Sequence record: NC_134264.1
DNA from: Escherichia phage Lindwurm
Strand: one strand, 5' to 3'
DNA length: 64,000 nt
This document shows positions 17,914-39,874 of this stretch, one piece after another. A program made the position numbers and the translations under genes. The notes below the pieces were generated by a model. That model was given only the letters and a program-made list of their open reading frames with translations, searched no databases and was not told the origin of the DNA. The stretch's first letter is position 1, and every line of letters begins with the position of its first letter.

Positions 17914-19970
17914 TGATTTCGAATAATGCACCAGCCAAAATGGTCTTAAATAGTATAATGACTGGATATACAATGGCATATGTCCAGCACTCTATATATA
18001 CTGACTATGACGTTATTGGTAGATCTTTTTGGTTAAAGACAGGAGAAAGTATAGATAGACGTGATTATACTGGTATAGATACTTTCTTCGTAATGATTAA
18101 TAACCTGACCCCTTCAACCTCTTATGAGATTCAAGGGGCTTTTTATGATTCTATTATAGATTCTGAGCTACTAGAGGCTAAAATTGGTATCATTCTATCT
18201 AATGAAACCAATTTTAAGACAAAAGAAAAGCCAACAATTGTTGCAGCAAGATCTGAGTCAGAACCTGTAGATGTTGGGGTGGGCTCACCAATAGTTGTTG
18301 TGGAAACAGCAGGTGAAGCGAGCTACTGTACTATTGAGTTAAAAAGTACAGCCTCTGAAGATACCCCATGGGTTAAATATTATATTGGGGCTCTCAGCTC
18401 TACTATTAAATTTGGGGGAGTTCCTATTGGGGATTATAAGATCAGAATATCCGGTCAAGTAACTATGCCTGATGGTGTTACAATTGATTCTTCCGGTTAC
18501 TATGAATTCCCTACTATTCTAACTGTAGCATATAATTTTGTTCCCCCTACCGCACCTATCAATATTGTTTTTAAAGCTGCACGAATTGCAGATGGTAAAG
18601 AACGGTATGATGTTAGAATTGAGTGGGATTGGGAACGCGGTGTTGGTGCTAATGTTCGTGAGTTCTTGGTTACTTATATAAACTCCGAAGAATACGCTAA
18701 GACTGGCTGGGCTAAAGCTCAAAAGATAAACGTTGGTGCTGCTAGAGCTGCAACGATTATATCATTCCCATGGAAAGTTGAACATACTTTTAAGGTATCA
18801 TCAATTGCCTGGGGACCAAATAGGCAGGATATAACAGACTCTACAGTACAGACTTTTATACTAAATGAAGATACTCCTCTAGATAACAGTTTTGTTAATG
18901 AGACTGGTATTGATGTTAATTATGCCTTTATTAAGGGTAGTATGAAAGAGGGAGAAATATGGAGACAGACATTCTTAATTGATGCAGCTACTGGTGCTGT
19001 TAATATTGGTCTGCTAGACGAAGAAGGTAAAGCACCTATTTCTTTCGACCCTATAAATCGTATTGTTAACGTTGACGGTAAAGTAATTACTAGAGATATT
19101 AATGCCGCTAACTTTATCATGACTAACTTGTCTGGTAAAGATAATCCAGCAATTTATACTCAAGGTAAATCTTGGGGGGATAATAACTCCGGTATTTGGA
19201 TGGGTATGGATAATACTTCTGCTAAGCCAAGGTTAGATATAGGTAATGCTACCCAATGGATACGTTATGATGGTGATACTCTTCGTATCTCTAGTGGAGT
19301 TATTATAGGTACTCCTAATGGTGATATAGATCTGGGTACTGGTATGCAAGGTAAGCAAACAGTATTTGTTTATAAGTTAGCAACATCTCTACCTGCTAAA
19401 CCACTAGAACAAGATTATCCGCCTCCTGGTTGGTCAAAAACTCCACCTAACCGTACAGATATGACACAAAATATCTATGCGACTACGGGTACACTTGATC
19501 CAGTTACTAACAAACTTCTTGAAGGTACTAGCTGGTCTGATGTAGTTCAGTGGAGTGGTACTGAAGGTACTATTGGTGCAGATGGTCAAAGGGGTCCTGG
19601 CATGTATTCTTTAGGTATTCCTGGTCTTGGTGGTTGGGATGATGGGCAAGCTAATACCTTTTTCCAGAATAACTTTGGTAGTCCACCAGTTAGATATGAT
19701 GTATTGACTGAGTTTAATAGTAATGCTCCGCAATCCGCGTTTACTCGTCAATGGAATGGTTCCGGTTGGGTTAACCCAGCAATGGTACTGCACGGTGATA
19801 TGATCGTTAATGGTACGGTAACTGCTAGTAAAATTGTTGCTAATAACGCTTTCTTATCACAAATTGGTGTAAATATTATATATGATAGGAACGCTGCATT
19901 ATCTGATAACCCGGAAGCCTACTACAAGATGAAGATAGACCTGCAAAATGGGTACATTCATATAAGGTAA
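17898..19970 (+). CDS. central straight fibre protein (690 aa, T5 pb4-like)
   Basis: Length and synteny; beta-rich repeat composition. Confidence 0.7.
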
Positions 19971-19974
19971 AATA

Positions 19975-20397
19975 ATGAGTACTGAAAATAGAGTTATAGA
20001 TTTAGTAATAGACGAAAATGTACCATATGGTCTAATGATGCAGTTCTTAGACGTTGATGATAGTACTTATCCTCCTACAAATACTCCTGTTAACTTAACC
20101 GGATATTCTCTAAGAGGTACTGTAAAAAATAGCCTAGATGAGAATGCGGAGATATTAGCATCCTTTACTACTAATATTATTGATGCTGCTCAGGGGGCTG
20201 TAGCTATAAGTTTGCCAGTAGAATCTGTGGAAAATATAGGAGCTAAAGCATCTAAAGATAGAGATAAATATAACCCCCGTCAGCGATTCGCAGGATACTA
20301 TGATATAATTATGACTAGAGATGTTATAGGATCTGCAATTAGCTCCTTTCGTATAATGGAGGGTAAAGTATTTATCAGTGATGGAGTAACTAAATAA
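19975..20397 (+). CDS. collar protein (140 aa, T5 p132-like)
   Basis: Small ORF immediately upstream of lateral fibre gene. Confidence 0.6.
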
Positions 20398-22826
20398 TGG
20401 CAGTAACTACTAAAATTATTGTACAGCAGATATTAAATATTGATGATACTAAAGCTACTGCTAGTAAATTTCCTAGATATACAGTAGCTCTAGGTAATTC
20501 TATTAGCTCTATTACCGCAAGTGAGTTAGTATCTTCTATTGAGGCAGCAGCTAAGTCTGCTGCAGCTGCAAAAGATTCTGAGATAGCGGCTAAAACTTCG
20601 GAACTTAATGCTAAGAACTCTGAACAGGAAGCTGCTATTTCTGCTGGAGCTTCTGAAACTTCTGCTACTCAGTCCGCTGCATCCGCTACTCAGTCTGCAG
20701 CATCAGCAACTGCTGCTAAAACATCTGAGGCTAACGCAAAGGCTAGCGAAGTTAGTGCTGCTGAGTATGCTGCCGCTGCTAAAACTTCTGAGACTAATGC
20801 AAAGGCTAGCGAAGTTAGTGCATCTGGATATGCTGATTCAGCAAAAACTAGTGAAACTAATGCAAAAACTAGTGAAACTAATGCAAAAACTAGTGAGACT
20901 AATGCAAAAACTAGTGAGACTAATGCAGCTGCATCTGCTTCTAGCTCTAGAGGATCCAGGGATGAGGCAGAAGTATTCGCAACACAAGCTGCCGCATCAG
21001 CAGCAGCAGCAAAAAATTCGGAAAGTAATGCAAGTGCTAGTGAGATTAATTCAAAAGCTAGTGAAGATGCTGCCAAGCAAGCGCAAGTAGATGCTGCTGG
21101 TTCTGCCAACACTGCATCACAAGCTGTAAACACAATTCAAGGTCTTAAATCAGAGGTTGAGCAGTTAAAAACAGACACACAGGGTATTAAGGATAGTGCA
21201 GTAAGGGAAACTACTGCGTTAAAAGATGCCACCGCTGCATCAGCTGCACAAGCTATAACCACAATTGAAGGTCTTAAATCAGATGTTGAACAGTTAAAAA
21301 CCGACACCCAGAGTATTAAGGACAATGCAGTAACGGAAACTACAGCGCTAAAAGACGCTGCGGCTGCTTCAGCTACACAAGCAAGTAATAGCGCTACCGA
21401 AGCGGGACAACAAGCCAGCAATGCTGCTGGTAGTGCAAATAGCGCTAAGGGTGACGCTGACCGTGCAAATGCAGAAGCAGACCGTGCGGAAGTTGCAGCT
21501 AATAGGGCTCCTGATCTTCAACCATTCCCTGATGTATGGATTCCATTTAATGACTCGCTTGATATGCTTGCAGGTTACTCGCCAGGGTATAAGAAAATAA
21601 CAGTTGGTGAAGATGTTATTACAATGCCTTCTGATAAGGTTGTTAGTTTCTCGCGTGCGTCAAATGCAACATACATAAATAAGCATGGTGAATTTTGTAT
21701 TGCTAATATCGATGAACCCCGATTTGAAAAGCAAGGACTCTTGATTGAAGGCCAGAGGACAAATCACATTACTTTCAGTAATGACCCAGCTTCATTAAAT
21801 ACAGATAAATACCGTAGTGATGTTACTTATAGTGTTGATAAGTATGGTTTTGCATATGCAACGGCGACAGCAAACGAAAAGTCACAAGGTGTGTATCCTT
21901 CATTATTTTATTGTGAAACCGTAAATGCAATCAACTGTCAGCAAAATGAATACGTTTCTTTATCTATACGAGTAAAGGCAAACTTGGATATCTATATCAC
22001 CCCACAATTTTATTTAGTAGGTGAGGATGGAGGTCTTATTCTTGGAGCTAGATCTTTCATAAATTGCGAAACCGGCGAAGTTTCTTCTGTAGTAGAAGGG
22101 AGGGGGACTATAGCACATAGAATATATAGAGAAGACAACGGATGGTTGAAAGTTGAAGCTATGTGTAAATTTGTAGAACGTGGAGGTAGTTCTATTGGAT
22201 CTGTAAATTATTGTCGGAATAATGATCAACCTGCGCAAGTTGGGGATACAATATCATTTTGTACTCCTCAATTTGAAAAAGGTTTTTGTGCATCCTCCTT
22301 CATTATTACGGGAAGCACGCCTGCAACAAGGGCTCTGGATTATGTTACTATACCTGCAAGAAATAATTTCTCAGGGACGAATATTTCATTCCTTGCTGAG
22401 GTAAGTATCAACTGGGATAGCTTTCAATTAGCTAATACATATCCAATGATAATGGACAACAATAAATATGATATAGCCGGAGAATCTTTTGTATCTGAGA
22501 TGATTATATCTACAATGCAGCCCAACGTTTACTTTTTAAATAAAGAAACTGGTAGCCCCATTGGTTCGAATGGAGCTTCGTTTAGCGGGGTAGGCGTCCC
22601 CTCTGTATGGGGGTTTATACATACAAAAAATGGGGATGTAACATCGTTTTTGAATGGTTTTAAGAATATAACATCCTCCGGTTCAACGTGGGAAGGACTA
22701 TCTCCGGATTCCTTGCTGGAGATAGGCGGTAGACCTTCAAATTCAACTAAATTGTATGGTCATATTCGTAACCTTAGAATATGGAATCGAGTATTAACGG
22801 ATAGTCAAATGAGGGAGAGAGTTTAA
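20397..22826 (+). CDS. lateral tail fibre protein, proximal subunit (809 aa), pb1-like N-terminus with heptad/43-aa repeats
   Basis: N-terminus resembles T5 L-shaped fibre as recalled (ITASKFPRYTV, KTSETNA repeats); distinct C-terminal domain. Confidence 0.8.
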   Translation: MAVTTKIIVQQILNIDDTKATASKFPRYTVALGNSISSITASELVSSIEAAAKSAAAAKDSEIAAKTSELNAKNSEQEAAISAGASETSATQSAASATQSAASATAAKTSEANAKASEVSAAEYAAAAKTSETNAKASEVSASGYADSAKTSETNAKTSETNAKTSETNAKTSETNAAASASSSRGSRDEAEVFATQAAASAAAAKNSESNASASEINSKASEDAAKQAQVDAAGSANTASQAVNTIQGLKSEVEQLKTDTQGIKDSAVRETTALKDATAASAAQAITTIEGLKSDVEQLKTDTQSIKDNAVTETTALKDAAAASATQASNSATEAGQQASNAAGSANSAKGDADRANAEADRAEVAANRAPDLQPFPDVWIPFNDSLDMLAGYSPGYKKITVGEDVITMPSDKVVSFSRASNATYINKHGEFCIANIDEPRFEKQGLLIEGQRTNHITFSNDPASLNTDKYRSDVTYSVDKYGFAYATATANEKSQGVYPSLFYCETVNAINCQQNEYVSLSIRVKANLDIYITPQFYLVGEDGGLILGARSFINCETGEVSSVVEGRGTIAHRIYREDNGWLKVEAMCKFVERGGSSIGSVNYCRNNDQPAQVGDTISFCTPQFEKGFCASSFIITGSTPATRALDYVTIPARNNFSGTNISFLAEVSINWDSFQLANTYPMIMDNNKYDIAGESFVSEMIISTMQPNVYFLNKETGSPIGSNGASFSGVGVPSVWGFIHTKNGDVTSFLNGFKNITSSGSTWEGLSPDSLLEIGGRPSNSTKLYGHIRNLRIWNRVLTDSQMRERV
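20844..20927 (+). repeat. 4 x 21-bp perfect/near-perfect tandem repeat inside fibre gene (encodes KTSETNA heptads)
   Basis: AAAACTAGTGA(A/G)ACTAATGCA repeated head-to-tail four times. Confidence 0.9.
21120..21377 (+). repeat. 2 x 129-bp imperfect direct repeat inside fibre gene (43-aa module)
   Basis: CAAGCTGTAAACACAATTCAAGGTCTTAAATCAG... vs CAAGCTATAACCACAATTGAAGGTCTTAAATCAG... Confidence 0.85.
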
Positions 22827-22827
22827 A

Positions 22828-23094
22828 GTGAAAGATATTAGCTTGCAATTTAAAGACGAAAAACATTATCGGGATGTTGTCATTAGTAGTGAGTGGCTTA
22901 AGACAAACTACGGTAAAGTGTTTGTAGATGAAATTGGTTTTGTCCTCATAGTAGATGACCCGAAAAGTAAGACTCCAGTTGTCATTGGAAAAGAGGGCTA
23001 TTATATAAACATAAGAATAATAGGGGACGATGTGGACTTGTCAGATCTTGAACAATTTATTATTAAGAATCCCTGCGTACGTAAATGGGCATAA
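22828..23094 (+). CDS. small protein between fibre genes (88 aa, GTG start), possible fibre adaptor/assembly factor
   Basis: GTG start 7-10 nt after GAGGGAGAGAG; tightly packed between two fibre genes. Confidence 0.45.
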   Translation: MKDISLQFKDEKHYRDVVISSEWLKTNYGKVFVDEIGFVLIVDDPKSKTPVVIGKEGYYINIRIIGDDVDLSDLEQFIIKNPCVRKWA

Positions 23095-23104
23095 GAGGTG
23101 ATCA

Positions 23105-24865
23105 ATGACTACTTATACTAGTATTCCCCAGGATATTACAAAACTTAAAAACGAGTCTCTTAATAAGAATAATAACTTAAGCGACTTAGCAGATCGCGCA
23201 GCTGCGTGGCTAAATGTTCGTCCTATTGGATCTACTCCCCTTGCGGGAGACCCTGTTAATGATTATGATGCTGTAACTAAGCGTTGGGTGGAGAACAAAA
23301 TTAATACTGGTACAGTAGGACCCACAATGAATGGTGTTATGAACTACGGGGTAGGGGATTTTCATCTTCGAGATAGCCGTGCGTATATTCAACCTTATGA
23401 GGTAGTTTCTGATGGGCAGCTTCTTAACAGGGCTGACTGGCCGGAGCTTTGGGCTTACGCTCAAATGGTGGGGGCAATTAGTGATGACATTTGGGTGTCT
23501 GATACCAAACAACGTGGGAAATATTCTACGGGAGATGGTACCACTACTTTCCGCGTCCCAGATCGTAATGGTGTGCAACTAAATTCAATCAAAGGGTTAT
23601 TCGCTCGTGGTGACGGTGGGGGAGATGCTGGTCAAGCTGGTTCAATATCAGAAGCTGCAGCACCCAATATTACTGGTAGTTTTCCTGGCGCTATTGCTGG
23701 TGCGTATGAATCCGCAATTAACGTATATTCATCACAAAAAGGTCTTCCCGGTGCGCTCAATGGGGAAAATGGATTAGGTGTTGATAGGGACGGTTTAAGT
23801 AAATCTGGCACTGTACCTGCACCGGATAATACATACGGATTTAGCTTTGATGCTAGTAGAGCTGACCCTGTTTATGGACGTTATGGAATAACAGGTACTA
23901 TTATTCCAAATAACTTTATAGGTGTCTGGGTAATCCGCGCATCAGGCGGGTTCGTTGCTGCGAATACATCGTGGAGTGTTAAGAACGCCGATAAAAGCGC
24001 ACCTCCGCTCGGCACTGTCGTCCGTGGCGGTGAGGTGGTATCGGAATATTCCAACCCAGAATCTAAGAAGTTCGCCCGTCTGTACTCAAGCTCTGTATGG
24101 GGTTCTCCTAACGCGGCTGTTGTTGAATCTCAAGGGGCAGATATGCACCCATTCAGGTTCTATGAGAACGGTAACATGGACTTCCGAAAGTCCGGTCATG
24201 GAAACGCTTTGGGGATGTATTCTGTCCAGGTCTCCTGGGATCCGTTACTCCGTGCGGGGACGTCCAACTTGGTTACGGGCGGGGTTGATCGTGTGTCGGA
24301 AGGTGCTGGCTCGGATATCGTAGTAGTTGGTTATTCACTTGGTGCGGTTGGCCCAACAGGGTATCCAACCAAAGTAGGATTCCACCAATACATGCCGGGA
24401 AGTCCTGCATTCGGTTCGGCGGTCATTACTGTTGGTGGTGATAACAATAATTGGGCGCGGTACTTCTTTGATATCACCGGGCAGATTTACGGGGCTACAA
24501 GCAACGGCGAGTTCAGCTACACGCGTAACGGTGTATCTGATGAGCGGGTTAAGCATGACATCTCCCCTGTAGGTGTTGATAAGTCGTACTCTAATATTCA
24601 AGGTCTGGAGTTTGTAAAGTTCGTCTACAATAACGACGAGCAGGAGCGCGTCCGGCATGGTGTAATCGCGCAGCAGGCGGAGACTGTTGAACCTCTATAC
24701 GTTAAGACCCGTAAGTACGTGGGTATTAATCCAGGAGAGGTTGTGGAGCAGAAGGAACTGGACACCACGCCGATGCTTCTGGATACCATGCACGTTGTGC
24801 AAGTATTGATGCAGAGAATCGAATCGATGGAAGCTGAGATTGCTGAATTAAAGGCAAGTAAGTAA
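23105..24865 (+). CDS. tail fibre protein, distal subunit (586 aa) with phage tail-collar-type motif and C-terminal intramolecular chaperone (peptidase S74-like) domain
   Basis: N-terminal fibre motif DPVNDYDAVTKRWVE; FRVPDRNGVQ...RGDGGG; C-terminal SDERVKHDIS... chaperone signature. Confidence 0.8.
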   Translation: MTTYTSIPQDITKLKNESLNKNNNLSDLADRAAAWLNVRPIGSTPLAGDPVNDYDAVTKRWVENKINTGTVGPTMNGVMNYGVGDFHLRDSRAYIQPYEVVSDGQLLNRADWPELWAYAQMVGAISDDIWVSDTKQRGKYSTGDGTTTFRVPDRNGVQLNSIKGLFARGDGGGDAGQAGSISEAAAPNITGSFPGAIAGAYESAINVYSSQKGLPGALNGENGLGVDRDGLSKSGTVPAPDNTYGFSFDASRADPVYGRYGITGTIIPNNFIGVWVIRASGGFVAANTSWSVKNADKSAPPLGTVVRGGEVVSEYSNPESKKFARLYSSSVWGSPNAAVVESQGADMHPFRFYENGNMDFRKSGHGNALGMYSVQVSWDPLLRAGTSNLVTGGVDRVSEGAGSDIVVVGYSLGAVGPTGYPTKVGFHQYMPGSPAFGSAVITVGGDNNNWARYFFDITGQIYGATSNGEFSYTRNGVSDERVKHDISPVGVDKSYSNIQGLEFVKFVYNNDEQERVRHGVIAQQAETVEPLYVKTRKYVGINPGEVVEQKELDTTPMLLDTMHVVQVLMQRIESMEAEIAELKASK

Positions 24866-24868
24866 ATA

Positions 24869-24902
24869 AAAACCCCAAAGGGATATCCCTTTGGGGTTTT
24901 TT
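24869..24902. terminator. bidirectional terminator between convergent fibre and dUTPase genes
   Basis: 14-bp perfect stem AAAACCCCAAAGGG/CCCTTTGGGGTTTT flanked by A-tract and T-tract. Confidence 0.85.
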
Positions 24903-24926
24903 ATTATTACTTAACTAATGGGTGGA

Positions 24927-25373
24927 TTATTTACTTCCTGAACTTCCAAATCCACCTTCCCCACGATCAGTCTCCCCTAGTTTATCAACTATTTCAAAAT
25001 TATGCGTTGAGTAGTGCGGTACTACTACTAGTTGACAAAGTCTTTCAAAATTCTCCAGAGTTTGAATTTCAGAACCATAGTTATAGAGGTTCATCTTAAT
25101 AGTTCCACGATAGTCTGAGTCGATCACTCCTGTGGTATTTGCAATCATCAAATGACGTTTACCTAAAGAACTACGAGGAACTACCAAACCGAACCAACCT
25201 CGCGGAATTTCCACCGCGACACCGGTGTCAATCATTAAGGATTTGCCGGGTGCAATAGCACGTAAATCTGCAGCAGGGTTAGTACCAAAGAATGCTCGCA
25301 GATCCATACCTGCAGCATCTTCGGAACCAATCTTAGGCATACAATCTGGATGAGTTAACTTAATTTTAATCAT
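24927..25373 (-). CDS. dut: dUTPase
   Basis: Motifs RSSLGK, GVIDSDYRG typical of trimeric dUTPases. Confidence 0.9.
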   Translation of the reverse strand: MIKIKLTHPDCMPKIGSEDAAGMDLRAFFGTNPAADLRAIAPGKSLMIDTGVAVEIPRGWFGLVVPRSSLGKRHLMIANTTGVIDSDYRGTIKMNLYNYGSEIQTLENFERLCQLVVVPHYSTHNFEIVDKLGETDRGEGGFGSSGSK

Positions 25374-26245
25374 TGTTCTGCAATCTCCAAAATATCTTTT
25401 GTAAACTTATCTAATACATCTTGACCTACAGCAGCAATAGCGTCTACACAGTAGGTTGGTAAATCAACCAGAATTAGGTTTCGGTAAAGCAATTCTTCCG
25501 AAGCATTTAAATTCTGTATATACTTCTGTTTTCCGGGCAAGGGAAGCTGATCAATAATATCCAGAACGTTACCAAATTCACGAATAATATTATACCCGCG
25601 TTTTGCTCCAATACCTTCAACACCACGGATATTATCCCCTAAATCACCCATAATTGCTTTTAGGGAGATAAACTGCTCTACATCGTCAACATTATGATGC
25701 TCATACATATCACGAAGATGGTATTCACGACGTGTTGTGAAAGAGAATCGAGAAACTTTATCAGTTAATAAAGTATCCCAGTCACCATCAGTAGAAATCA
25801 ACCAAACGTGATCATACAGATGTCCAATGAGTTTAACGATATAAGCCGCCATATCATCTGCTTCTACACCACGAATAGTGAATGTTGGGAATGTAGTTTC
25901 ACATAATTCGAAAGCATCTTTCAAGTACTCGAAGAACTGCTCATCTAACGCTTTCTCCTCTTCCGTGCGCTGAGAGTATTTCTCATCTCGATTCCCTTTA
26001 TACTCGGGGAGATGCTCTAAGCGGAATGCGGACTTCCCTTTATCTCCTAAAACTATTGTGGTTCTAGCAGAATAAGATTTTGCTAGAGATTGAATAGTGG
26101 AGACATAACTTGAGGCAAATGGTTTTTTACTATTGTTATGCTTGAAGCGAAAGCCTAAGTTAGTTCCATCGACAATCATTAGGTTACGACGGGAAGCCAT
26201 TTCAGCTTCCTCTTCTTCAATAAATTTTCCCCAGGATTTACTCAT
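25370..26245 (-). CDS. flap endonuclease / 5'-3' exonuclease (291 aa)
   Basis: N-terminus MSKSWGKFIEEEEAEMASRRNLMIVDGTNLGFRF matches T5 D15 exonuclease as I recall it; FEN acidic residues present. Confidence 0.9.
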   Translation of the reverse strand: MSKSWGKFIEEEEAEMASRRNLMIVDGTNLGFRFKHNNSKKPFASSYVSTIQSLAKSYSARTTIVLGDKGKSAFRLEHLPEYKGNRDEKYSQRTEEEKALDEQFFEYLKDAFELCETTFPTFTIRGVEADDMAAYIVKLIGHLYDHVWLISTDGDWDTLLTDKVSRFSFTTRREYHLRDMYEHHNVDDVEQFISLKAIMGDLGDNIRGVEGIGAKRGYNIIREFGNVLDIIDQLPLPGKQKYIQNLNASEELLYRNLILVDLPTYCVDAIAAVGQDVLDKFTKDILEIAEQ

Positions 26246-26727
26246 TATTTAATTAAGTCCTCAACAGATGCATGATGTAGCCACGGCTCAAATAAACCAA
26301 TTACGATTTCCATGTCTTTCTTATTTAACACCATATGGGTACGACTCATTAAGTTGTCAACCATCGGGTCTGAGCTATCCAAAGCTATTAACCACTGTCC
26401 TCTGTCTTTTTTGAATATTAATGCAGGTTTGGAGTTCATCTGCTCACCCTCACGTGAGCACTGCTGCCACCACTTCTCTAGAGTGGATTCACCAACATTA
26501 AATAAATTACTTGATATATTATCATCTTTATACCACTTAACTTCGAAGCAGTATTTACTAATGTGTCCGCTTTGTGGTGGAAGGTAGATGTCACCTTTCA
26601 GTCCGTGGCTCTGGCCAAAAGCACCAGAACCAGGAACACGTTCCCACTCAAGACCTGTACGTTCACGTAAAATATCTCTTACCTGATATTCACCACGTTT
26701 ACCTTTCTCTCTACTATCTACGGCCAT
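26245..26727 (-). CDS. Hjc-like Holliday junction resolvase / PD-(D/E)xK nuclease (putative)
   Basis: KGKRGEYQVRDIL...GSG...GDIY...CFEVK pattern resembling archaeal-type Hjc resolvases. Confidence 0.5.
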   Translation of the reverse strand: MAVDSREKGKRGEYQVRDILRERTGLEWERVPGSGAFGQSHGLKGDIYLPPQSGHISKYCFEVKWYKDDNISSNLFNVGESTLEKWWQQCSREGEQMNSKPALIFKKDRGQWLIALDSSDPMVDNLMSRTHMVLNKKDMEIVIGLFEPWLHHASVEDLIK

Positions 26728-26730
26728 GTT

Positions 26731-28569
26731 TTATTCTAAGTAGGAAAATCCTTCTGCATCTTTTTTGACAGTAATCTTATGAGCTAATGGATGCGTATGC
26801 CCATGAGAAACAATGATAGAATTTAGACTTTCTTCCTCATTTAATAGTTCAACGAGAGTATCAAGTCCTTTAGTATCAATAAAGCTAATTACTTCATCAA
26901 GGAATAGTAAATTAATATTAACTTTACTAATAGATGTTAGTAGCATTCGAATAGCTAACAGAGTTGCTAGGTTGATTCGACTTTGTTGACCAGTAGAGCA
27001 GTTCTCCATACTGGTACGATTTCCATCATTGAAGATTACTACTTGTAATTTTGTTTCATCAAGTTCAAATCCAAGTGCGAACTTACCACCAGTCATAATG
27101 GAAAGGTATTTATTGATAAGCTCTTCAAATACTTTCACACTATGCTCTAGCTTATATCCTACCAGATTCTTTAATGCAGCGATCAGAATATCGAGATCAG
27201 CAACAGCTTCTGATACCTCATCCAGTTTGGAAGTAATCTCAGACATTTCTGCCTCAGCTTTCTCAATCTGTTCTAGTTTCGCTTTATATTTTGCATTGGC
27301 TAATTCGACATTTGCATTATGCTCTTTGGCAATTGCAACCTTAGAACGGCCATCAGCGATTTCCTGTTCTAATTGTCGGATTTGCACCTGTAGGATTTGC
27401 ACATTGAGTTCTTCAAAAGAAGCATCACTCATTGAGTTTTTGAACTCGTCTCTAGCTGTTACTGCCTTATCCAAAGCATCCTTTGCTCTAGTATATGCAG
27501 TGTATTCAAGTTGTTCTTTCTTCAGCTGTTCTAGCTTAGCTTCTAGAGATTGCTTCTCTTTGAACAGAGGATCATATTCTGTTCTAGCCATATCCATTGC
27601 TTTTTGAGCAGCGGTTGTATCCAGATGAGTACCACAAGTAGGACATTCAGTATTTGAAGCTTCTTGCTTGAACTTCTGATAACGTTTCTTGACTTCGCCC
27701 GCACGTGAGGTCACAATCGTTAGGTCACACGTAACACTTGAGATCTCTTCGTTTTGGTCGGTGGGCGCAGGTAAATTTTTGAAAGGCTCGAAAGATTGTT
27801 CGGCAACTTGTACAGCTTTGTCCAAATTACGCAATTTAGTAATATTAGCCTCTTGTGACTTGGCTAATGCCGCCTTAATTTTCGATTCAGTAAGTTCTTG
27901 TGCTAATGGCTCTTCATCAAACTCAGGCACTTCTACAGGTTCCTGCAAAGTTCCCAGATTATTCTTTCCATTAAGGATTTTCGTAATTACAGCCATTTGG
28001 CCCTGCAAATTATTCAAGGTATTTGCTATTTCTTTACGGTCAGCCTTAATAGTTTCTGACATTTCTTTGTACTGTTCTTGATTGAACAAGTTAACAAGGA
28101 AAGCCTTACGTGTTGCATCCGTTGCTTTTAGAAAGTCTAGATTGGAACCCACTGATTGATAAATTAGTTTGGTGAACGTTTGGAAGTCACCTCCCATAAT
28201 CTCTTCAATCATCTTGTATGTTTGAGTTGCCGTGTGTCCACTAATATCTTCTCCATTCTTAATAAGAGTTACTTTAGCAGTTGATTTAACTACTTTATGC
28301 AGTTCGTACTCATCTTCATCTTTCGAGAAGTAAGCGTGCATATCATACTCTTTTTTAGGAGAAGACCAAGAGAACAGAGCATCCTTCTTAATACCACGTG
28401 AGTTCTTATTATAGAATAGTTCTTCAATAACAGTGGCGATGGTGGATTTCCCTAGCCCATTGCCGCCAATTAATTGAGTAACTGGATTCTTATCGAAATG
28501 AATTACGATGTCCTTACCGTAAGACATAACGTTACTAAATTTTAGTGTTTTAATTGTAATCTTTGACAT
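26731..28569 (-). CDS. SbcC/Rad50-like recombination ATPase
   Basis: Walker A GGNGLGKST, long central coiled coil, Walker B LLFLDEV; start moved to ATG at 28569 (MSKITIKTLKF). Confidence 0.8.
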   Translation of the reverse strand: MSKITIKTLKFSNVMSYGKDIVIHFDKNPVTQLIGGNGLGKSTIATVIEELFYNKNSRGIKKDALFSWSSPKKEYDMHAYFSKDEDEYELHKVVKSTAKVTLIKNGEDISGHTATQTYKMIEEIMGGDFQTFTKLIYQSVGSNLDFLKATDATRKAFLVNLFNQEQYKEMSETIKADRKEIANTLNNLQGQMAVITKILNGKNNLGTLQEPVEVPEFDEEPLAQELTESKIKAALAKSQEANITKLRNLDKAVQVAEQSFEPFKNLPAPTDQNEEISSVTCDLTIVTSRAGEVKKRYQKFKQEASNTECPTCGTHLDTTAAQKAMDMARTEYDPLFKEKQSLEAKLEQLKKEQLEYTAYTRAKDALDKAVTARDEFKNSMSDASFEELNVQILQVQIRQLEQEIADGRSKVAIAKEHNANVELANAKYKAKLEQIEKAEAEMSEITSKLDEVSEAVADLDILIAALKNLVGYKLEHSVKVFEELINKYLSIMTGGKFALGFELDETKLQVVIFNDGNRTSMENCSTGQQSRINLATLLAIRMLLTSISKVNINLLFLDEVISFIDTKGLDTLVELLNEEESLNSIIVSHGHTHPLAHKITVKKDAEGFSYLE

Positions 28570-29527
28570 ATTTCGCAGCTCTAGCCAAGATTCTATCAAT
28601 GTCGCCTTGAGATAGCTTCTCGACTTCACGGAAGTAAAGTTCAAGTTCACCTAACATATCAAGATCAACAAGATTTAACTTAGCGTCTTTAGTAACTCGA
28701 TGGTTAATCTTCTTATCTAATAAATCAGAGTCTTTGATAGACTTTAATTGAACAACGTCACCAGTAACCTCATAGACTACACGATCATAATCACTAGGTT
28801 CCATCTCTTCACCAGCTCCGATTGTTTTACGAATCAGTTGTGGTAAATCACCGAGTTCAATCCATTCTACTTTTAATGTATTGGTATCAACGATAAAGCA
28901 ACCATTTGTACCTTTTGTGCGTTCTCTATGGAACGATGTAGTTAATGGAGACCCTGGGTAGAGAAGTCTAGTAGATCCGATAGTCTGGCTATTAGTATAA
29001 GAATGTAAATCGCCAGCAATTACAGTATCATAACAGTTGTACTTAGTTAGATCAATTTCTGGTTTTACATGCGGAGGGATTTCACCGCGAACATGCGTGA
29101 AACATAGTTTTGATTCAGATGGTTTCCACTTAGATTTATGGATTTCATCATATGGAACAATATCAAATTCAGGGGAACGATATGGTTTGGTAATTACTTC
29201 CCACTTCCCACTAGTTACTTTATTAATAACTCCTGCATAGTGATACAGACATGAAATGGTTTTAGTTAGCATTTCATGATTTCCAGTAAAGATTTTGCCT
29301 GGATGGTCAAGTCTTGACATGAACTGTTCAAGCAGTTCTATTTCTTCTGACGACGGGTCGGCAACATCAAGTATATCACCACCAGCAATATGAAGATCAC
29401 AGTTATGATTATGGAATATATCATTTAACCGTTCTCCTAGCATCAGGAAGCGACGCTTCTGCCATTCCTTTGGAACTTTATCTTGTCCTAGTTTGATATG
29501 ATGATCAGCACTAAATAATATTCTCAT
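28550..29527 (-). CDS. SbcD/Mre11-like nuclease
   Basis: Metallophosphatase motifs ADHH, GNHE, GDLH. Confidence 0.8.
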   Translation of the reverse strand: MRILFSADHHIKLGQDKVPKEWQKRRFLMLGERLNDIFHNHNCDLHIAGGDILDVADPSSEEIELLEQFMSRLDHPGKIFTGNHEMLTKTISCLYHYAGVINKVTSGKWEVITKPYRSPEFDIVPYDEIHKSKWKPSESKLCFTHVRGEIPPHVKPEIDLTKYNCYDTVIAGDLHSYTNSQTIGSTRLLYPGSPLTTSFHRERTKGTNGCFIVDTNTLKVEWIELGDLPQLIRKTIGAGEEMEPSDYDRVVYEVTGDVVQLKSIKDSDLLDKKINHRVTKDAKLNLVDLDMLGELELYFREVEKLSQGDIDRILARAAKYVKDYN

Positions 29528-29531
29528 TGGT

Positions 29532-29556
29532 TAAAAAGAAAGGGGCCGAAGCCCCT
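29532..29556 (-). terminator. hairpin (UUCG loop on - strand) between ssb-like gene and sbcD-like gene
   Basis: AGGGGC-TTCG-GCCCCT then TTTCTTTTT on - strand. Confidence 0.6.
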
Positions 29557-29563
29557 CTATTTA

Positions 29564-30337
29564 TTAGTCGTCCAGATCGCTTGCAGCTTCTGTGTCAATA
29601 CCTTTCTGGGAGCCTGCATTGCTATTACCAGATTTGGCATCATCATCTTTATTCTCACGACCCTCCATGAAGGCTTGAATTGCTTCTTTCTGCTCTTCAT
29701 AGGTAGGAACCGGATAGGTTTGTTCCAGAGAAGGAACTTTTTCGAACTTAATGATGTCGCCATCTTCATCACACATAGCTTCACCGATCAGATCTACATC
29801 TGCAGCATATTGCTTAGATTCCGCACTGTTAGGATCTTGCAGCTTAATCTGGAACTGCATAGCAGCAATCTGCTGTACATCATACTCAGTATCGAAACCT
29901 TTACCTTTTTTCTCGATAGAAATATCAATATCAAACGGAGTCGCCAGATTCAACTGCTTCATGATAGACTGGATGCCTTTCAGAATAGTAGCCTTGACTT
30001 CCATTACTTTCAGTTTGTTATCAGAACGGTCGATAACAAAAGCGATATAGTTTTTCTTCGGTTTCAGCGGAACACGATTACCATCTTTATCCAACTCTTT
30101 CTCGAAGAAGCCCATCTCATGAACTGGATCAGCTTTACCACGAACAAAGCTCTCTTTGTCACGGTTAAAACGGAGACATTCGAAAGGAGCTACGTTACCC
30201 TCTTTATTAGTCAGCCAATAGACATAACGTGGAAGAACGCCAGAAACGATACGAACACGAGTGATACCGTTGTTGAACTTCAGGAATTCGATTTTATCGT
30301 TAGAACCGCCAGTAGTTTCGCCCCAAGACTTAGCCAT
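29564..30337 (-). CDS. putative ssDNA-binding protein
   Basis: Acidic C-terminal tail (ASDLDD) and position among replication genes; weak inference. Confidence 0.4.
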   Translation of the reverse strand: MAKSWGETTGGSNDKIEFLKFNNGITRVRIVSGVLPRYVYWLTNKEGNVAPFECLRFNRDKESFVRGKADPVHEMGFFEKELDKDGNRVPLKPKKNYIAFVIDRSDNKLKVMEVKATILKGIQSIMKQLNLATPFDIDISIEKKGKGFDTEYDVQQIAAMQFQIKLQDPNSAESKQYAADVDLIGEAMCDEDGDIIKFEKVPSLEQTYPVPTYEEQKEAIQAFMEGRENKDDDAKSGNSNAGSQKGIDTEAASDLDD

Positions 30338-30614
30338 ATTTTATTTCCTCTTTAAAGATTAATTTCGATTTGTTAATTGCGATTAGTGGGTTAGTGTCGA
30401 TTACTAAACGTGGTATCCATACTGGAACATATTGTATGTCCAAACTAGGATCGTTTGTAAACTTGTATTCGGCATAATTTCGTAGACTTAAAATTCCTAG
30501 ATATTCTGCCAGTTGTCTATTAGACAATTTATTTGGATTATCAACTATTGTTGATTCATTCAAAATGAATGAGGAACCGACCAATAATTGGTGAGCATCA
30601 GGCTCTGTAAGCAT
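30330..30614 (-). CDS. hypothetical protein (94 aa)
   Basis: ORF downstream of tandem promoters; no recognisable motif. Confidence 0.4.
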   Translation of the reverse strand: MLTEPDAHQLLVGSSFILNESTIVDNPNKLSNRQLAEYLGILSLRNYAEYKFTNDPSLDIQYVPVWIPRLVIDTNPLIAINKSKLIFKEEIKYG

Positions 30615-30721
30615 TCTTTTGAATAGCTTAATAATTAGGTCGGAATTTCCTCTAGCTAGTAAGTATAGCTTTTCATAATCGAAGAATTTAATTTTTGTTT
30701 TCTCCTCGAATTTATGTATAT

Positions 30722-30751
30722 ATTATACTAGATTTCGAGAGAATTTAGCAA
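30722..30751 (-). promoter_or_regulatory. sigma70-like promoter (TTGCTA-18-TATAAT)
   Basis: Read on - strand; followed by conserved CATAAATT leader. Confidence 0.6.
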
Positions 30752-30822
30752 CTAAAATTTTTATTTTTCTGCTTCGGACTTTCTTATCAATCCGAAACTT
30801 TCTCTCTCAAATTTATGTATAT

Positions 30823-30851
30823 ATTATACATCATTTATGAGCTATTGCCAA
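30823..30851 (-). promoter_or_regulatory. sigma70-like promoter (TTGGCA-17-TATAAT) overlapping helicase stop
   Basis: Read on - strand; leader CATAAATTTGAGAGAG. Confidence 0.6.
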
Positions 30852-32187
30852 ATGCAATTTTAGCTAATTGAACTGCTTTCTCCGGAGTCATAGTAATAGT
30901 TTTCCACCCGTTATTACGATATACTGCCATACGTCCAGAAGCCTGTCTTAGTCCAGTGCCGCCTTTCATAATTAAATCTACAACAATAGGGTCGAGTTTA
31001 CCATCGACAATACGTTGAACACGTCCTGCAAGCTGTTCAATGAGAGATTCATTATTAATGAGACTTCCCATTATTAAACAAGATAGCTCATTAAGGGAAA
31101 TACCTTCAGAGAAGATACTTTGAGCGGCTGCAAGTACACAAGGTCCACCTTTTGCTATATCTTCCTGAATTTTTAATCGGTCATCTAAGTGGGTTGCCCC
31201 TATAATTTCATGTGTTGTAACACCACGCTGTGCAAGAGCTTCTAGTACTGTTTGGATTAGCTCTGTTCTGTCACTTACAATGAGTACTTTATGCCCCATA
31301 TTCACGTATAAATGTGCTAGATTTATAATAGTCTCTCGATATTCAGGATGGTTGTACACATCATTAGCACGTAATGCCCACGGTACGTTTTGGTTTCCTG
31401 ATAACTCAACAGGCACGGAGTACCTATGGATTGTAGGTGCAACAGTATTATTAACCGGTGGGCTAAAGATCTTATATCCAAAGAAATCTTTGAACATAAC
31501 TTGTAGACCATCTTTTCGTTTTAATGTACCGGATAGTCCAATCTTATAGCGAGCACATGATATTTCTAGGAAGTTAGTGAAAGTTGTAGCCACACAATGG
31601 TGAACCTCATCAACTATAACAGTACCGAATACTTTAGAAAGATTATTCGCATGTTTATTCACTGTTTGAATATTACTGACCACAATTGGTGGATCAATAT
31701 TGTATTTCCCAGAACCTATGATGCCTGGTTCAAACCCAAACCATTTACGAACTTCTGCCGCCCACATCTCACGAATGGATGTATTCGTACATATTACCAG
31801 AGTTTTCTGTCCAAATTTATACGCAAGTGCAAGGGCTAAGATAGTTTTACCAAACCCAGGCTTACCATTAATAATACAGGTATCATCACACTCTTCATAT
31901 ATTGGGAGCTGGTCTTCTTCACGCAGTTTGAACTTAGGTTTTGGTATATCTACTGGAGCTAATGTGCGTTTATCGACTAATTCGTATTTTACTCCTTTAG
32001 CATCTAGTAAATCCAGACGCGTAATAGGAATCCACTTAATCTCTTTGGCAACAACACCACTATTCTTATACATAATAGGGTATTTACTAGTCATTGTCTC
32101 TATGTGATAAGTGGTTTGCTTACTACAATAATCCCAAAGTTCATCATCGGGCTTGAAATAGGCTTTATTAGATATAACAACCTTCAT
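30835..32187 (-). CDS. SF2 DNA helicase (450 aa)
   Basis: Walker A GKPGFGKT, DEVH box (VIVDEVHH); length matches T5 D10 helicase as recalled. Confidence 0.8.
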   Translation of the reverse strand: MKVVISNKAYFKPDDELWDYCSKQTTYHIETMTSKYPIMYKNSGVVAKEIKWIPITRLDLLDAKGVKYELVDKRTLAPVDIPKPKFKLREEDQLPIYEECDDTCIINGKPGFGKTILALALAYKFGQKTLVICTNTSIREMWAAEVRKWFGFEPGIIGSGKYNIDPPIVVSNIQTVNKHANNLSKVFGTVIVDEVHHCVATTFTNFLEISCARYKIGLSGTLKRKDGLQVMFKDFFGYKIFSPPVNNTVAPTIHRYSVPVELSGNQNVPWALRANDVYNHPEYRETIINLAHLYVNMGHKVLIVSDRTELIQTVLEALAQRGVTTHEIIGATHLDDRLKIQEDIAKGGPCVLAAAQSIFSEGISLNELSCLIMGSLINNESLIEQLAGRVQRIVDGKLDPIVVDLIMKGGTGLRQASGRMAVYRNNGWKTITMTPEKAVQLAKIAFGNSS

Positions 32188-32681
32188 AATTTTATTCTAA
32201 GTCTAGGAATTTCAGGCTCCTCTTGATGGACTTGGTAAATAACAGGGCTATTATTTACCAGAATATAGCTTATATAAGCTGGAACATAGGATAATACAAA
32301 TGGATATGGAACTTTAGCTACATAGCATTGGTATTTTCCGTTATAAATTCTAGCTGAATGCAAAACTTTAGAGGTGACAACATCATAGAACGTAGTTTTC
32401 TTCCAGTTAATAAGATTTCCATCAGAATCTATAAATTGGCTACGTTTTGACCCAACTAGTTGAGACAACATTGATATTCTACCTCTAATAGGATAGAGCT
32501 TGTATGGTAATTCTTTCCGTTTCTCAAATAGAATAAGTCTACGTTGAGAAAATGTGCCAGGCAACTTCCTGTTATCTAGCACATATTTATTATATCTTGT
32601 TGTAATTACGGAATAATCACCTTCTTGCTCAATTGATACAAACGCCCGTAAAGCATATATGGGCAATTTGAAATCAAGCAC
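32184..32681 (-). CDS. hypothetical protein (165 aa) between polymerase and helicase
   Basis: Start overlaps polymerase stop, stop overlaps helicase start; no motif recognised. Confidence 0.5.
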   Translation of the reverse strand: MLDFKLPIYALRAFVSIEQEGDYSVITTRYNKYVLDNRKLPGTFSQRRLILFEKRKELPYKLYPIRGRISMLSQLVGSKRSQFIDSDGNLINWKKTTFYDVVTSKVLHSARIYNGKYQCYVAKVPYPFVLSYVPAYISYILVNNSPVIYQVHQEEPEIPRLRIKL

Positions 32682-35241: not shown

Positions 35242-35302
35242 ATTTAATCTCCTCTTGGTAAGTAAGTATAACTTCAGTGTTTCTTCTCTAACTTACCAAT
35301 AT

Positions 35303-35331
35303 ATTATATCAAAATATTGGGATAATAGCAA
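35303..35331 (-). promoter_or_regulatory. sigma70-like promoter upstream of DNA polymerase (TTGCTA-17-TATAAT)
   Basis: Read on - strand. Confidence 0.65.
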
Positions 35332-35334
35332 ATA

Positions 35335-35664
35335 CTATTTATAGGTGTGAAGTAATTTACGCATTTCATTGCGATGCTTTTCTAGTACCCGAAATTCTTC
35401 ATCTATACGCAGAAAAGCATCTAGCGCTTTCATAGATTGCTCAGTATTTTCTACAACAGCCCAATCATATGTTAGGTATACCTCTTGACCTGTATCTTTT
35501 ACTTTAAAGTAAATATAAGATGCAGGTAATTTAGGATCACCAAATAAATGGAAATTCTTTCGTTTATTAAGGGACTCCAGTGTTGTAAACCGCTCTAGTT
35601 TAACCTCTTTGTGTGTTACACTATCATACACTGGAACATCCGCATAAATATATACATATTCCAT
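35335..35664 (-). CDS. hypothetical protein (109 aa)
   Basis: TATAAT and GAGGAG upstream; no motif. Confidence 0.5.
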   Translation of the reverse strand: MEYVYIYADVPVYDSVTHKEVKLERFTTLESLNKRKNFHLFGDPKLPASYIYFKVKDTGQEVYLTYDWAVVENTEQSMKALDAFLRIDEEFRVLEKHRNEMRKLLHTYK

Positions 35665-35690
35665 AGTAGCTCCTCAGTTATTTAGGACTA

Positions 35691-38050: not shown

Positions 38051-38132
38051 TCTCCTTTGCACGCTTTCGTGCCTTCTAAATGCAAAAAGGGGAAGGAGCA
38101 TAGCCCCCTCCCCTTAGGTTTAATTTACCAGA

Positions 38133-39675: not shown

Positions 39676-39702
39676 ATTTCTTCCTTATCAATTTATATAA
39701 AT

Positions 39703-39731
39703 ATTATAGCAAGTATTTAAGCATTTAGCAA
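39703..39731 (-). promoter_or_regulatory. sigma70-like promoter inside the split ligase locus (TTGCTA-17-TATAAT)
   Basis: Read on - strand; followed by AAGGAAG RBS and ATG of the C-terminal ligase subunit. Confidence 0.7.
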
Positions 39732-39874
39732 CTACAATTTTAACTAACTTTGCTTACCCTCGCCATAACTTTCTATCCCTCAACTGAATGATAATAGTAT
39801 ATACCTAAGCGGCGAAAATGTCAATAACCACTTTATAATTCCGATATGGTAGATGGGTAGCAAAGGGTTATGTA

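Follow-up and report, generated by a model that had tools for sequence, protein, structure and literature searches.

The distal lateral-fibre gene of the T5-like phage Lindwurm is a mosaic, with a breakpoint in homology and a shift in base composition falling together inside its reading frame. The best explanation, to which we give a probability of roughly nine in ten, is that the 3' ~940 bases of the gene are a cassette encoding the fibre tip and its own chaperone, recombined in from a GC-richer phage gene pool with a resulting change in recognition. The window referred to below is the whole 64-kb stretch of Lindwurm DNA that was analysed.

The lateral-fibre locus and its compositional break

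The source phage of the window is T5-like (Markadamsvirinae), and the flanking 20 kb are 96-97% identical to Tequintavirus-type phages, with 416 records at coverage of at least 80%. The fibre locus lies between pb4/LtfC and dut, as in T5-like phages, with dut and a flap endonuclease downstream on the opposite strand, and it consists of three genes, for a proximal fibre of 809 residues, a protein of 88 residues and a distal fibre of 586 residues (Table 1). The same gene order and sizes are found in the T5-like phages WP85 (PV844355), PH204 (OR492254), phC11 (OQ680480) and AKFV33 (HQ665011); WP85 differs in having an unrelated tip and two extra small ORFs before dut. The LtfC-like gene is 92-98% identical to that of WP85 at the nucleotide level. 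Residues 3-200 of the proximal protein match phrog_24369, a profile of 1396 residues, and resemble the N-terminus of T5 pb1 and DT57C LtfA; by BLASTP, residues 1-191 agree with DT57C LtfA at 46% overall and at a much higher level in the first ~85 residues. The shaft that follows is made of Ala/Ser/Glu-rich repeats (GC at third codon positions, GC3, of 0.25), and a Pfam search of the whole proximal protein gave no S74 chaperone (PF13884) and only a weak Laminin_G_3 match. Counterparts of the 88-residue gene stand at the same position in WP85, PH204, BRET and a 60-kb contig of Queuovirinae type (L008, 91 residues), and we infer an assembly or adaptor role for the protein.

Table 1. Features of the Lindwurm lateral-fibre locus and of its distal fibre gene (window coordinates)
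Feature	Position	Strand	Basis or remark
LtfC-like collar protein, 140 aa, lateral-fibre attachment	19975..20397	+	phrog_34807 'collar tail protein for L-shaped tail fibre attachment', E 1.7e-25
Proximal lateral-fibre protein, 809 aa	20397..22826	+	phrog_1419, E 6.5e-220
Small protein between the two fibre genes, 88 aa	22828..23094	+	phrog_1361, E 4.1e-28
Distal lateral-fibre gene, 586 aa	23105..24865	+	phrog_6921 tail fibre, E 2.3e-181
Resident T5-like part (N-terminal anchor and collar-like shaft), aa 1-273	23105..23925	+	GC3 0.278, equal to background
GC3-rich block, probably acquired (corrected island extent)	23926..24865	+	GC3 0.537; WP85 homology absent
Conserved junction motif AANTSWSV	23960..23983	+	nucleotide pattern GCNAAYACNTCNTGGAGYGT at 23960-23979; putative 5' crossover site
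Predicted mature receptor-binding tip, aa 286-477	23960..24535	+	between junction motif and Ser478
Hypervariable tip core, aa 361-405	24185..24319	+	nucleotide identity comparison among relatives
C-terminal intramolecular chaperone (Peptidase_S74), aa 478-586	24536..24862	+	PF13884, 40.6 bits (cut-off 22), aa 478-530
Perfect 15-bp-stem hairpin, flanking T-runs on both strands, terminator-like	24868..24901	both	terminator scan; between convergent fibre and dut genes
dUTPase gene (dut), T5-like backbone resumes	24927..25373	-	ORF; WP85 89-98% nucleotide identity from 24926 on

An earlier note, made by eye from the letters of the sequence, had described 23.9-24.75 kb as GC-richer than its flanks, with about 60% GC at 24001..24060 and a shift toward GC-ending codons, and sliding-window and codon calculations across the window bear this out with high significance. 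The stretch 23900-24750 has a computed GC content of 51.1% and the window one of 39.16%; among all 851-nt windows of the 64 kb (mean 39.1%, sd 2.95%) its z score is 4.05, and the highest value of all, 52.3%, belongs to the one that begins at 23921. The interval 24001..24060 is exactly 60.0% GC. Within the fibre gene, the maximum-likelihood change-point of GC3 is codon 273 (nt 23924), with 0.278 to its left and 0.537 to its right (permutation p <= 5e-4), and the right-hand part departs from the background of 0.303 +/- 0.055 (56 ORFs of the window) with a binomial p of 1e-17. The nine top GC3 values in 100-codon windows over 57 ORFs all lie in 23945-24844. No second GC3 change-point was found downstream of codon 273 in the fibre gene, and the island therefore does not end at 24750, as had been proposed, but extends as far as the stop codon (24865).

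Such GC-richness could in principle be intrinsic, arising from the Gly/Ala/Val-rich composition of a beta fibre or from selection of a late structural gene for codons that the host prefers. First and second positions are GC-richer throughout the fibre gene (GC1/GC2 of 0.57/0.45 against ~0.50/0.36 in other ORFs), and this explains the milder rise of GC over 23200-23900 (~0.46), where the protein is Gly/Ala-rich and GC3 is background-like. At codon 273, however, it is third positions alone that jump (0.28 to 0.54), with GC1 and GC2 almost unchanged, and the jump is kept after amino-acid stratification (Cochran-Mantel-Haenszel z = 6.1), so that its cause lies in the choice among synonymous codons rather than in the composition of the protein. 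Moreover, the other late structural genes, including a 458-residue ORF at 4219-5595 (presumed major capsid protein), have GC3 values of 0.25-0.31, and the change-point coincides with the loss of homology to WP85. An intrinsic origin is thus largely refuted, and the block differs in composition from the genome at synonymous sites, as an acquired island would.

The window has a second GC3-rich patch, within nrdA (54020-54440), which was examined as a possible parallel case. As 516 of 520 T5-like records share it and E. coli gave no match, recent acquisition was rejected for this patch, and it stands as a control in contrast to the island.

Breakpoints and relatives of the tip-chaperone block

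From 19900 to ~23925 the window is mostly 96-100% identical to the T5-like Salmonella phage WP85, its nearest relative at this locus. Homology is lost at ~23926, where third-position mismatches start, and comes back at 24926 (dut), with 24000-24900 unalignable; the boundaries of the island thus coincide with the loss and recovery of WP85 homology, and the GC3 change-point lies at the collapse of identity. Upstream of this point, residues 31-270 of the distal fibre are 97-100% identical to WP85 at the nucleotide level, and over residues 1-30 PH204 is the closer relative (92%). At its 3' side the exchanged block stops just before the terminator-like hairpin, which PH204 and phC11 have in part and ZCEC10 and BRET do not share. 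Part of the block is also common to the T5-like PH204, part of the chaperone reaches 99-100% identity to the Nonagvirus BRET, and the alignments indicate that the block is itself a finer mosaic.

Even in sensitive mode, 21 records cover at least 80% of the island. Among these, identity above 90% is found only in the Dhillonvirus phages ZCEC10-12, and the best T5-like record is PH204 at 75%; the backbone, by comparison, is matched by the 416 records mentioned above. The island is therefore neither like the background in GC content nor conserved across all T5-like phages, the two outcomes that the earlier note had set against its own reading. The T5-like phages PH204, phC11, IME178, AZ21/23 and BUCT632 have more distantly related tips of this family, at 67-75%, and among the T5-like records searched this tip allele itself is carried only by the Lindwurm window and by an independent contig, L009.

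Homology to Dhillonvirus and Queuovirinae-like fibres starts in every case exactly at 23960, the first base of the AANTSWSV motif. Positions 23960-24843 are 91.4% identical to gp49 of ZCEC10 (genome 54.7% GC) and 92.9% identical to a 44.8-kb IMG/VR contig (L010, 54.1% GC), and 23960-24803 are 91.35% identical to the 60-kb contig L008, which is itself 93-96% identical to Queuovirinae-type phages; a 44.7-kb metagenome contig shows 89% protein identity. The cassette is present with identical boundaries in at least three separate Dhillonvirus-size genomes. Its close homologues, at 91-94% nucleotide identity, thus reside in phylogenetically unrelated genomes, as expected of an acquired island, and together with the agreement of change-point and breakpoint they uphold the horizontal acquisition first proposed from GC content. 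In 5,426 complete E. coli genomes there was essentially no bacterial or prophage source, with one 78-base plasmid match only, and one genome per GTDB species gave no match to the cassette. Neither 23926-23959 nor the final ~60 bases of the gene has a close match in any sampled sequence, so that the direct donor is unsampled.

Assemblers can mis-join reads at conserved motifs where mosaic junctions sit, and the island could on this account be a chimera of two co-cultured or co-sampled phages. L009, however, an independent Logan contig (run SRR23717181), is 99.3% identical over 23171-24897, including both junctions and the terminator; it carries the same mosaic, which is therefore not an assembly chimera. 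The reading frame is moreover intact, giving a complete 586-residue protein with its domains in the correct order, and an artefact of this kind is exceedingly improbable. It was also considered whether the window might be an engineered PH204/SP76 recombinant (PMC11938639); this was rejected, as the swaps in that work concern pb3/pb4 and not the fibre gene.

The junction pattern GCNAAYACNTCNTGGAGYGT was found in 10 of the 11 fibre loci compared, and AANTSWSV is conserved in the alignment behind two different upstream architectures. The tip that follows is the most variable part among relatives, above all in its core, which is 93-94% identical to ZCEC10 in nucleotide sequence and 41-52% identical to PH204, phC11, BRET, PEC14 and O18-011. 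A designation as an 'O18-specific tip' was dropped, the fibre of Kuravirus O18-011 being only about 40-64% identical in the core at the nucleotide level. The hypervariability of this core might suggest that a divergent tip was made in situ, by local hypermutation or DGR-type diversity generation. Against this, more than 840 contiguous bases of the block match genes of other phage lineages at 91-94% identity, which excludes in-situ mutation as its source, and no template repeat or second copy of 23900-24865 was found in the 64-kb window (word size 7, E <= 0.01); in-situ origin has next to no likelihood.

In the chaperone domain, a Ser478/Lys483 dyad within SDERVKHDI provides the Ser-x4-Lys that the S74 family requires at the domain start; the lysine column is invariant in the alignment and the serine column nearly so. 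The domain has a GC3 of 0.55, and residues 511-570 are 94-100% identical at the nucleotide level to gp25 of the Nonagvirus BRET. The earlier note had placed the island over the receptor-binding part, upstream of the chaperone. The island does cover the tip, but the S74 domain begins inside it (residue 478, nt 24536) and is already overlapped by the original limits of 23900-24750; modular exchange of receptor-binding domains is supported, with tip plus chaperone as the exchanged unit. An AlphaFold2 monomer of residues 271-586, from a 19-sequence alignment, reached a mean pLDDT of 50.8 and a pTM of 0.30, which is too poor for a fold search.

Proposed exchange and the direction of transfer

Homologous recombination with the fibre gene of a phage from the GC-richer pool would have replaced ~23926-24865, with the 5' crossover probably within the conserved AANTSWSV linker, with which all tips of this family start, or shortly before it, and the 3' crossover at the very end of the gene. 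The tip and its own S74 chaperone would move as one unit, presumably because a tip depends on its cognate chaperone for folding and trimerisation, and the chaperone is predicted from the S74 family to cleave itself thereafter at Ser478. The resident N-terminal part would keep the fibre on the T5-like virion, and the new tip would alter the surface glycan bound first, most probably O-antigen. Crossover at the motif, co-dependence of chaperone and tip, autocleavage and receptor type are drawn by analogy with T5 pb1, DT57C LtfA/LtfB and the endosialidase chaperones. Genetic work on DT57C and DT571/2 has shown that host range switches when the divergent C-terminal part of LtfA is exchanged, and that O-antigens are bound by these fibres (PMC4728585). 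Among Markadamsvirinae, Dhillonvirus and Queuovirinae, genomes vary chiefly at the lateral fibre locus (PMC8594841), and the description of ZCEC10-12 gives a spot-test host range over several serotypes and reports no receptor (PMC8954371).

The four closest copies of the cassette stand in a star-like relation, at 88.7-93.7% pairwise identity (parsimony on three and four copies), and the available relatives fix neither the donor lineage nor which way the transfer went. The cassette might instead be ancestral in a T5-like sub-lineage, with the Dhillonvirus and Queuovirinae-like phages as recipients. The window copy is central among the four and has fewer private changes than any other (17-21 against 32-50), and the family's more distant tips in several T5-like phages, listed above, also speak for this order of events. 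We nevertheless regard it as improbable, as the cassette, at a GC3 of 0.54, is well removed from the T5-like 0.30 and closer to the Dhillonvirus genomes, the allele has just two T5-like carriers among the records searched against at least three of Dhillonvirus size with identical boundaries, and between ZCEC10 and L010 the module has diverged by ~7% and the backbone by ~9%, in keeping with a module long resident in Dhillonvirus.

Import into the T5-like gene thus remains the preferred reading, and the composition of the copies adds a further feature. At 0.51-0.56, cassette GC3 is intermediate and like that of none of its carriers (~0.30 in the T5-like window, 0.32-0.53 in four flanking ORFs of L008, 0.66 in Dhillonvirus). 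On the Lindwurm branch there is no drift toward AT (9 S>W and 6-9 W>S changes), the ZCEC10 copy has 18-24 AT-to-GC against 9-12 GC-to-AT changes, and the copy in the 60-kb contig has 24-27 GC-to-AT against 9-15 AT-to-GC changes. A tentative and rather doubtful suggestion is that the cassette is foreign in composition to every carrier and belongs to a shared, host-like (E. coli/Salmonella-like) pool of tips that passes among three or more unrelated siphovirus lineages too quickly to equilibrate; if so, amelioration in opposite directions could be used to date transfers. The nearest relatives of the backbone are mostly Salmonella phages, and the close relatives of the tip with a recorded host were all isolated on E. 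coli, so that the swap may mark a recent host jump, or host extension, from Salmonella to E. coli.

Tip exchange at T5-like lateral fibre loci is already well described and is a known route to altered host range, and the Lindwurm case adds one allele; it extends a documented pattern and opens no new question. It does provide a clean, base-resolved example of how T5-like host recognition would be retooled by swapping a ~1-kb tip and chaperone cassette at a conserved linker, with near-identical copies in three unrelated siphovirus lineages. The AANTSWSV junction and the gene end would be natural cut-points for host-range engineering of T5-like therapeutic and biocontrol phages.

Comparison with known fibre systems

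The closest described counterparts are the branched fibres LtfA/LtfB of DT57C and DT571/2 (Golomidova et al. 2016, PMC4728585; structure PMC10713586, PDB 8HQZ), which occupy the same genomic position, from pb4/LtfC to dut. The proximal Lindwurm fibre shares the T5-like N-terminus of DT57C LtfA. Residues 524-822 of LtfA (PDB 8HQZ_d) match residues 12-316 of the Lindwurm distal fibre (E values of 3e-135 and 6e-115), and residues 206-788 of LtfB are 45% identical to it. The collar-like region is common to all three proteins (Lindwurm residues 30-300, LtfB 206-470, LtfA 524-822), with ~150 residues nearly identical, and the distal fibre of DT57C likewise has the ANTSWSV linker after the collar-like shaft, together with an S74 chaperone. 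The systems differ in that the first ~205 residues of LtfB, including the phiEco32 gp15-like N-terminal ~45 residues that dock on LtfA, are absent from the Lindwurm distal fibre, and in that Lindwurm has an 88-residue gene between its two fibre genes. Both DT57C fibre proteins end in S74 whereas the proximal Lindwurm protein is without it, and the DT57C tips are unrelated in sequence to the Lindwurm tip (residues 316-470). PH204 and phC11 have tips of Lindwurm's family, at 71-75% nucleotide identity with the divergent core described above.

The cassette itself is most closely matched in gp49 of the Dhillonvirus phages ZCEC10-12 (NC_073075; PMC8954371) and in 44.7-kb metagenomic contigs, where tip and chaperone are 91-93% identical over 884 bases with identical boundaries; ZCEC10 gp49 and Lindwurm residues 286-583 share 89.6% protein identity. 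The N-terminal two-thirds of gp49 are unrelated, except for a 52-residue motif resembling Lindwurm residues 19-70. As gp49 is without the 215-residue collar-like region, this motif directly abuts the ANTSWSV linker.

The S74 chaperones of the K1F/NF endosialidases, phage GA-1 gp12 and T5 pb1 resemble that of Lindwurm in belonging to PF13884, in the Ser-x4-Lys and in lying at the extreme C-terminus after a receptor-binding region. The solved members are only distantly related to the Lindwurm domain, and a PDB sequence search with the Lindwurm fibre returned none of them at E <= 0.01. Fibre segments are reportedly common to P2, Mu, lambda and T-even phages, which are otherwise unrelated. In the mosaicism of these phages, distal fibre segments are exchanged across families at conserved linkers, as in Lindwurm. 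Their fibres belong to other protein families and use separate chaperones of the Tfa/gp38 type, whereas the chaperone of Lindwurm is fused to the tip and would move with it.

Organization of the lateral-fibre locus

By sequence similarity the window belongs to the genome of a T5-like phage (Markadamsvirinae), with 25000-45000 being 96-97% identical, at 98-100% coverage, to Salmonella phages Stp1, SESL, SA001, LmqsSP1 and PH204. After the lateral-fibre genes comes a terminator hairpin, on which the fibre gene and dut converge. Two additional small minus-strand ORFs (~101 and ~69 aa; L002 5729-6345) lie between the fibre gene and dut in the T5-like Salmonella phage WP85 and are missing both from the window (24866-24926) and from PH204, so that the tip swap comes with an indel of ~600 bases.

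Features of the lateral-fibre locus and segments of the distal fibre gene
Feature	Coordinates	Description
LtfC-like collar protein	19975-20397	first gene of the lateral tail fibre locus
Proximal fibre, 809 aa	20397-22826	N-terminus like T5 pb1 / DT57C LtfA
88-aa protein	22828-23094	between proximal and distal fibre genes
Distal fibre, 586 aa	23105-24865	Peptidase_S74 chaperone domain at its end
Distal fibre, aa 1-30	23105-23194	closest to PH204, 92% nt; WP85 74-76%
Distal fibre, aa 31-270		closest to WP85, 97-100% nt
Distal fibre, aa 286-360		ZCEC10 84-92% nt; PH204 91-96% nt
Distal fibre, aa 361-405 (tip core)		ZCEC10-type copies only, 93-94% nt; all others 41-52%
Distal fibre, aa 511-570 (chaperone)	24630-24800	closest to Nonagvirus BRET, 94-100% nt
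Terminator hairpin	24868-24901	perfect palindrome, 15-bp stem, T-runs on both sides; called as terminator on both strands

In the proximal fibre gene, raw GC reaches 0.44-0.49 at 20600-21500 with a gene-wide GC3 of just 0.25, because the shaft is repetitive and rich in Ala, Ser, Glu and Thr ('KTSETNA', for example, occurs four times in tandem, and a ~38-aa unit, 'IQGLKSEVEQLKTDTQ.IKD.AV.ETTALKDA', twice). Identity to WP85 drops to 79-89% at 20600-20899 and 86-87% at 21300-21499, dips that suggest variation in repeat number or in patches.

Composition and breakpoint of the distal fibre gene

The earlier note had described a GC-rich island at 23900-24750 accompanied by a shift in codon usage, and both observations were borne out. 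GC is exactly 60% at 24001-24060 and 51.1% over 23900-24750, against 39.2% for the window; the latter segment has a z of 4.05 relative to all 851-base windows (mean 39.1%, sd 2.95%), the maximum of which begins at 23921. The distal fibre gene tops 56 ORFs in GC3 (0.42; mean 0.303 +/- 0.055), and its maximum-likelihood change-point falls at codon 273 (nt 23924; permutation p <= 5e-4), with GC3 of 0.278, indistinguishable from background, to the left and 0.537 to the right (binomial p 1e-17, island against background). GC1 and GC2 are nearly constant across this point, and the shift is kept when stratified by amino acid (Cochran-Mantel-Haenszel z = 6.1), showing that it is one of synonymous codon choice. 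The nine top GC3 values among 100-codon windows of 57 ORFs all fall within 23945-24844. A milder GC rise at 23200-23900 has background GC3 and is an effect of protein composition. No second GC3 change-point was found in the fibre gene, and the island thus extends to the stop codon; its start is now put at ~23926 and its end at 24865. As the S74 domain starts at aa 478 (nt 24536), the chaperone lies inside the island and not downstream of it, as had been supposed.

Identity to WP85 in 100-base steps is mostly 96-100% over 19900-23900; WP85 is unalignable from 24000 to 24900, and alignment returns at 24926, in dut. At base level, third-position mismatches to WP85 begin at 23926, and the composition change-point thus falls together with a recombination breakpoint. 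This coincidence, together with the amino-acid-stratified result, makes it very unlikely that GC-richness arose through protein composition or codon selection. Assembly chimerism has a negligible probability, being excluded by an independent metagenomic contig that is 99.3% identical across 23171-24897 and spans both junctions. Conservation across T5-like phages is lacking: among them identity peaks at 75%, in PH204, and only 21 phage records cover at least 80% of the island even in sensitive mode.

The window's only other stretch with 100-codon GC3 clearly above 0.5 (0.51-0.54; raw GC up to 0.52) is 54020-54440 in nrdA (ORF 53480-55915, plus strand), encoding the all-alpha domain and barrel start of the class Ia ribonucleotide reductase large subunit. 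Of 520 T5-like records, 516 conserve this patch, and a search for an E. coli DNA match found none, which marks it as an old family feature and a useful contrast to the fibre island, GC-rich yet not variable. A 212-aa ORF (63011-63649, plus strand), for which no Pfam match was found, reaches a 100-codon GC3 of 0.50 at its 3' end (63341-63640).

Foreign homologues, mosaic structure and probable source

From exactly 23960 to 24843 the island matches gp49 of Dhillonvirus ZCEC10 (genome 54.7% GC) at 91.4% identity and an IMG/VR contig (44.8 kb, 54.1% GC) at 92.9%; a further metagenome contig (44.7 kb) matches this part at 89% protein identity. A third lineage is represented by a 60-kb Queuovirinae-like contig (L008), where a gene is 91.35% identical to 23960-24803 and the adjoining 5.8 kb are 93-96% identical to Queuovirinae-type phages. 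The existence of such long, near-identical foreign homologues, and a search of the window for a template repeat that found none, leave practically no room for diversification of the tip in situ. Modular exchange of receptor-binding domains, as proposed in the earlier note, is supported with corrected boundaries (~23926-24865, chaperone included).

Homology to the fibres of the Dhillonvirus and Queuovirinae-like phages starts in every case at AANTSWSV (23960-23983), the nucleotide pattern of which, GCNAAYACNTCNTGGAGYGT, is present in 10 of 11 fetched fibre loci, DT57C ltfB among them. Alignment of the fibre relatives revealed two architectures upstream: a long type, with a collar-like region ('WVIRASGGFVA') preceding the motif, and a short type, with a ~70-aa N-terminal segment directly joined to it. 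The Dhillonvirus and Queuovirinae-like fibres lack the ~215-aa collar-like region, so that one tip occurs on fibres of 384, 586 and 630 aa; in ZCEC10 (L001 30423-32315) and L008 (6001-7155) a segment like window aa 19-70 ('NLSDLADRAAAWLNVRPIGSTPLAGDP...') abuts the ANTSWSV tip. The GC3-rich tract begins ~34 bases upstream of the motif, in the 'IRASGGFVA' codons, which makes a long-type fibre absent from the sampled sequences the probable direct donor.

By its nucleotide matches the distal fibre gene is a patchwork. The PH204/WP85 ranking in the first 30 codons is opposite to that in the following 240, so that the presumed docking end forms a small mosaic patch of its own. Identity to BRET gp25 at aa 511-570 (99% over 24700-24799) exceeds that of the Dhillonvirus copies, which makes the chaperone a sub-module with exchanges of its own. 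A unit of large fibre, ~90-aa protein and S74-tipped distal fibre is kept in both Queuovirinae-type (L008 3564-7155; BRET, L004 764-4954) and T5-like phages, and in the proximal fibre gene stretches within window 21100-22400 match BRET at 75-96% identity; the entire three-gene locus, and not the tip alone, thus circulates between families.

Pairwise identities among the four closest cassette copies range over 88.7-93.7% and give a star-like pattern, with private changes fewest in the window's copy. Cassette GC3 (0.51-0.56) is intermediate among carriers, which have 0.66 (ZCEC10, nine large genes), 0.32-0.53 (60-kb contig, four measured ORFs beside the fibre gene) and 0.30 (T5-like background). 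In ZCEC10 the private changes are more often AT-to-GC (18-24 vs 9-12 GC-to-AT), whereas those of the 60-kb contig are more often GC-to-AT (24-27 vs 9-15 AT-to-GC) and those of the window's copy are balanced. Searches of 5,426 E. coli genomes and of one genome per GTDB species yielded no source for the cassette. Most likely it came from a pool of phages richer in GC, whether Dhillonvirus-like or unsampled; passage in reverse, from T5-like phages to the other carriers, is improbable.

Proposed working of the fibre and relation to known systems

Homologues of the collar-like region and of the chaperone occur in LtfA and LtfB, the branched lateral fibres of T5-like DT57C, where the C-terminal divergent region sets O-antigen specificity and a recombination swap switches host range (PMC4728585). 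In the BASEL studies, the lateral fibre locus is given as the main variable region in Markadamsvirinae, Dhillonvirus and Queuovirinae, with conservation limited to the virion-proximal ends (PMC8594841). By analogy, aa 1-285 would hold the fibre on the T5-like virion via the proximal fibre, aa 286-477 would form the receptor-binding tip, probably glycan-binding, and aa 478-586 would be an intramolecular chaperone, folding the tip trimer before releasing itself by cleavage at Ser478 through the Ser478/Lys483 dyad. Tip and chaperone would travel as a single unit, with the 5' crossover in or close to the conserved linker and the 3' crossover at the gene end, immediately before the hairpin. Modelled as a monomer with AlphaFold2, aa 271-586 gave a poor result (pLDDT 50.8), and the paper describing ZCEC10-12 does not report on receptors.

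The locus differs from the DT57C two-protein type in that the N-terminal ~205 aa of LtfB are missing from its distal protein, its proximal protein lacks an S74 domain, and an 88-aa gene separates the two fibre genes; it is of the three-gene type of WP85, PH204, phC11 and AKFV33. That phage families exchange fibre tips has been known for a long time, and the window's cassette is therefore a new allele of a kind already known, the phenomenon being ordinary at the lateral-fibre locus.
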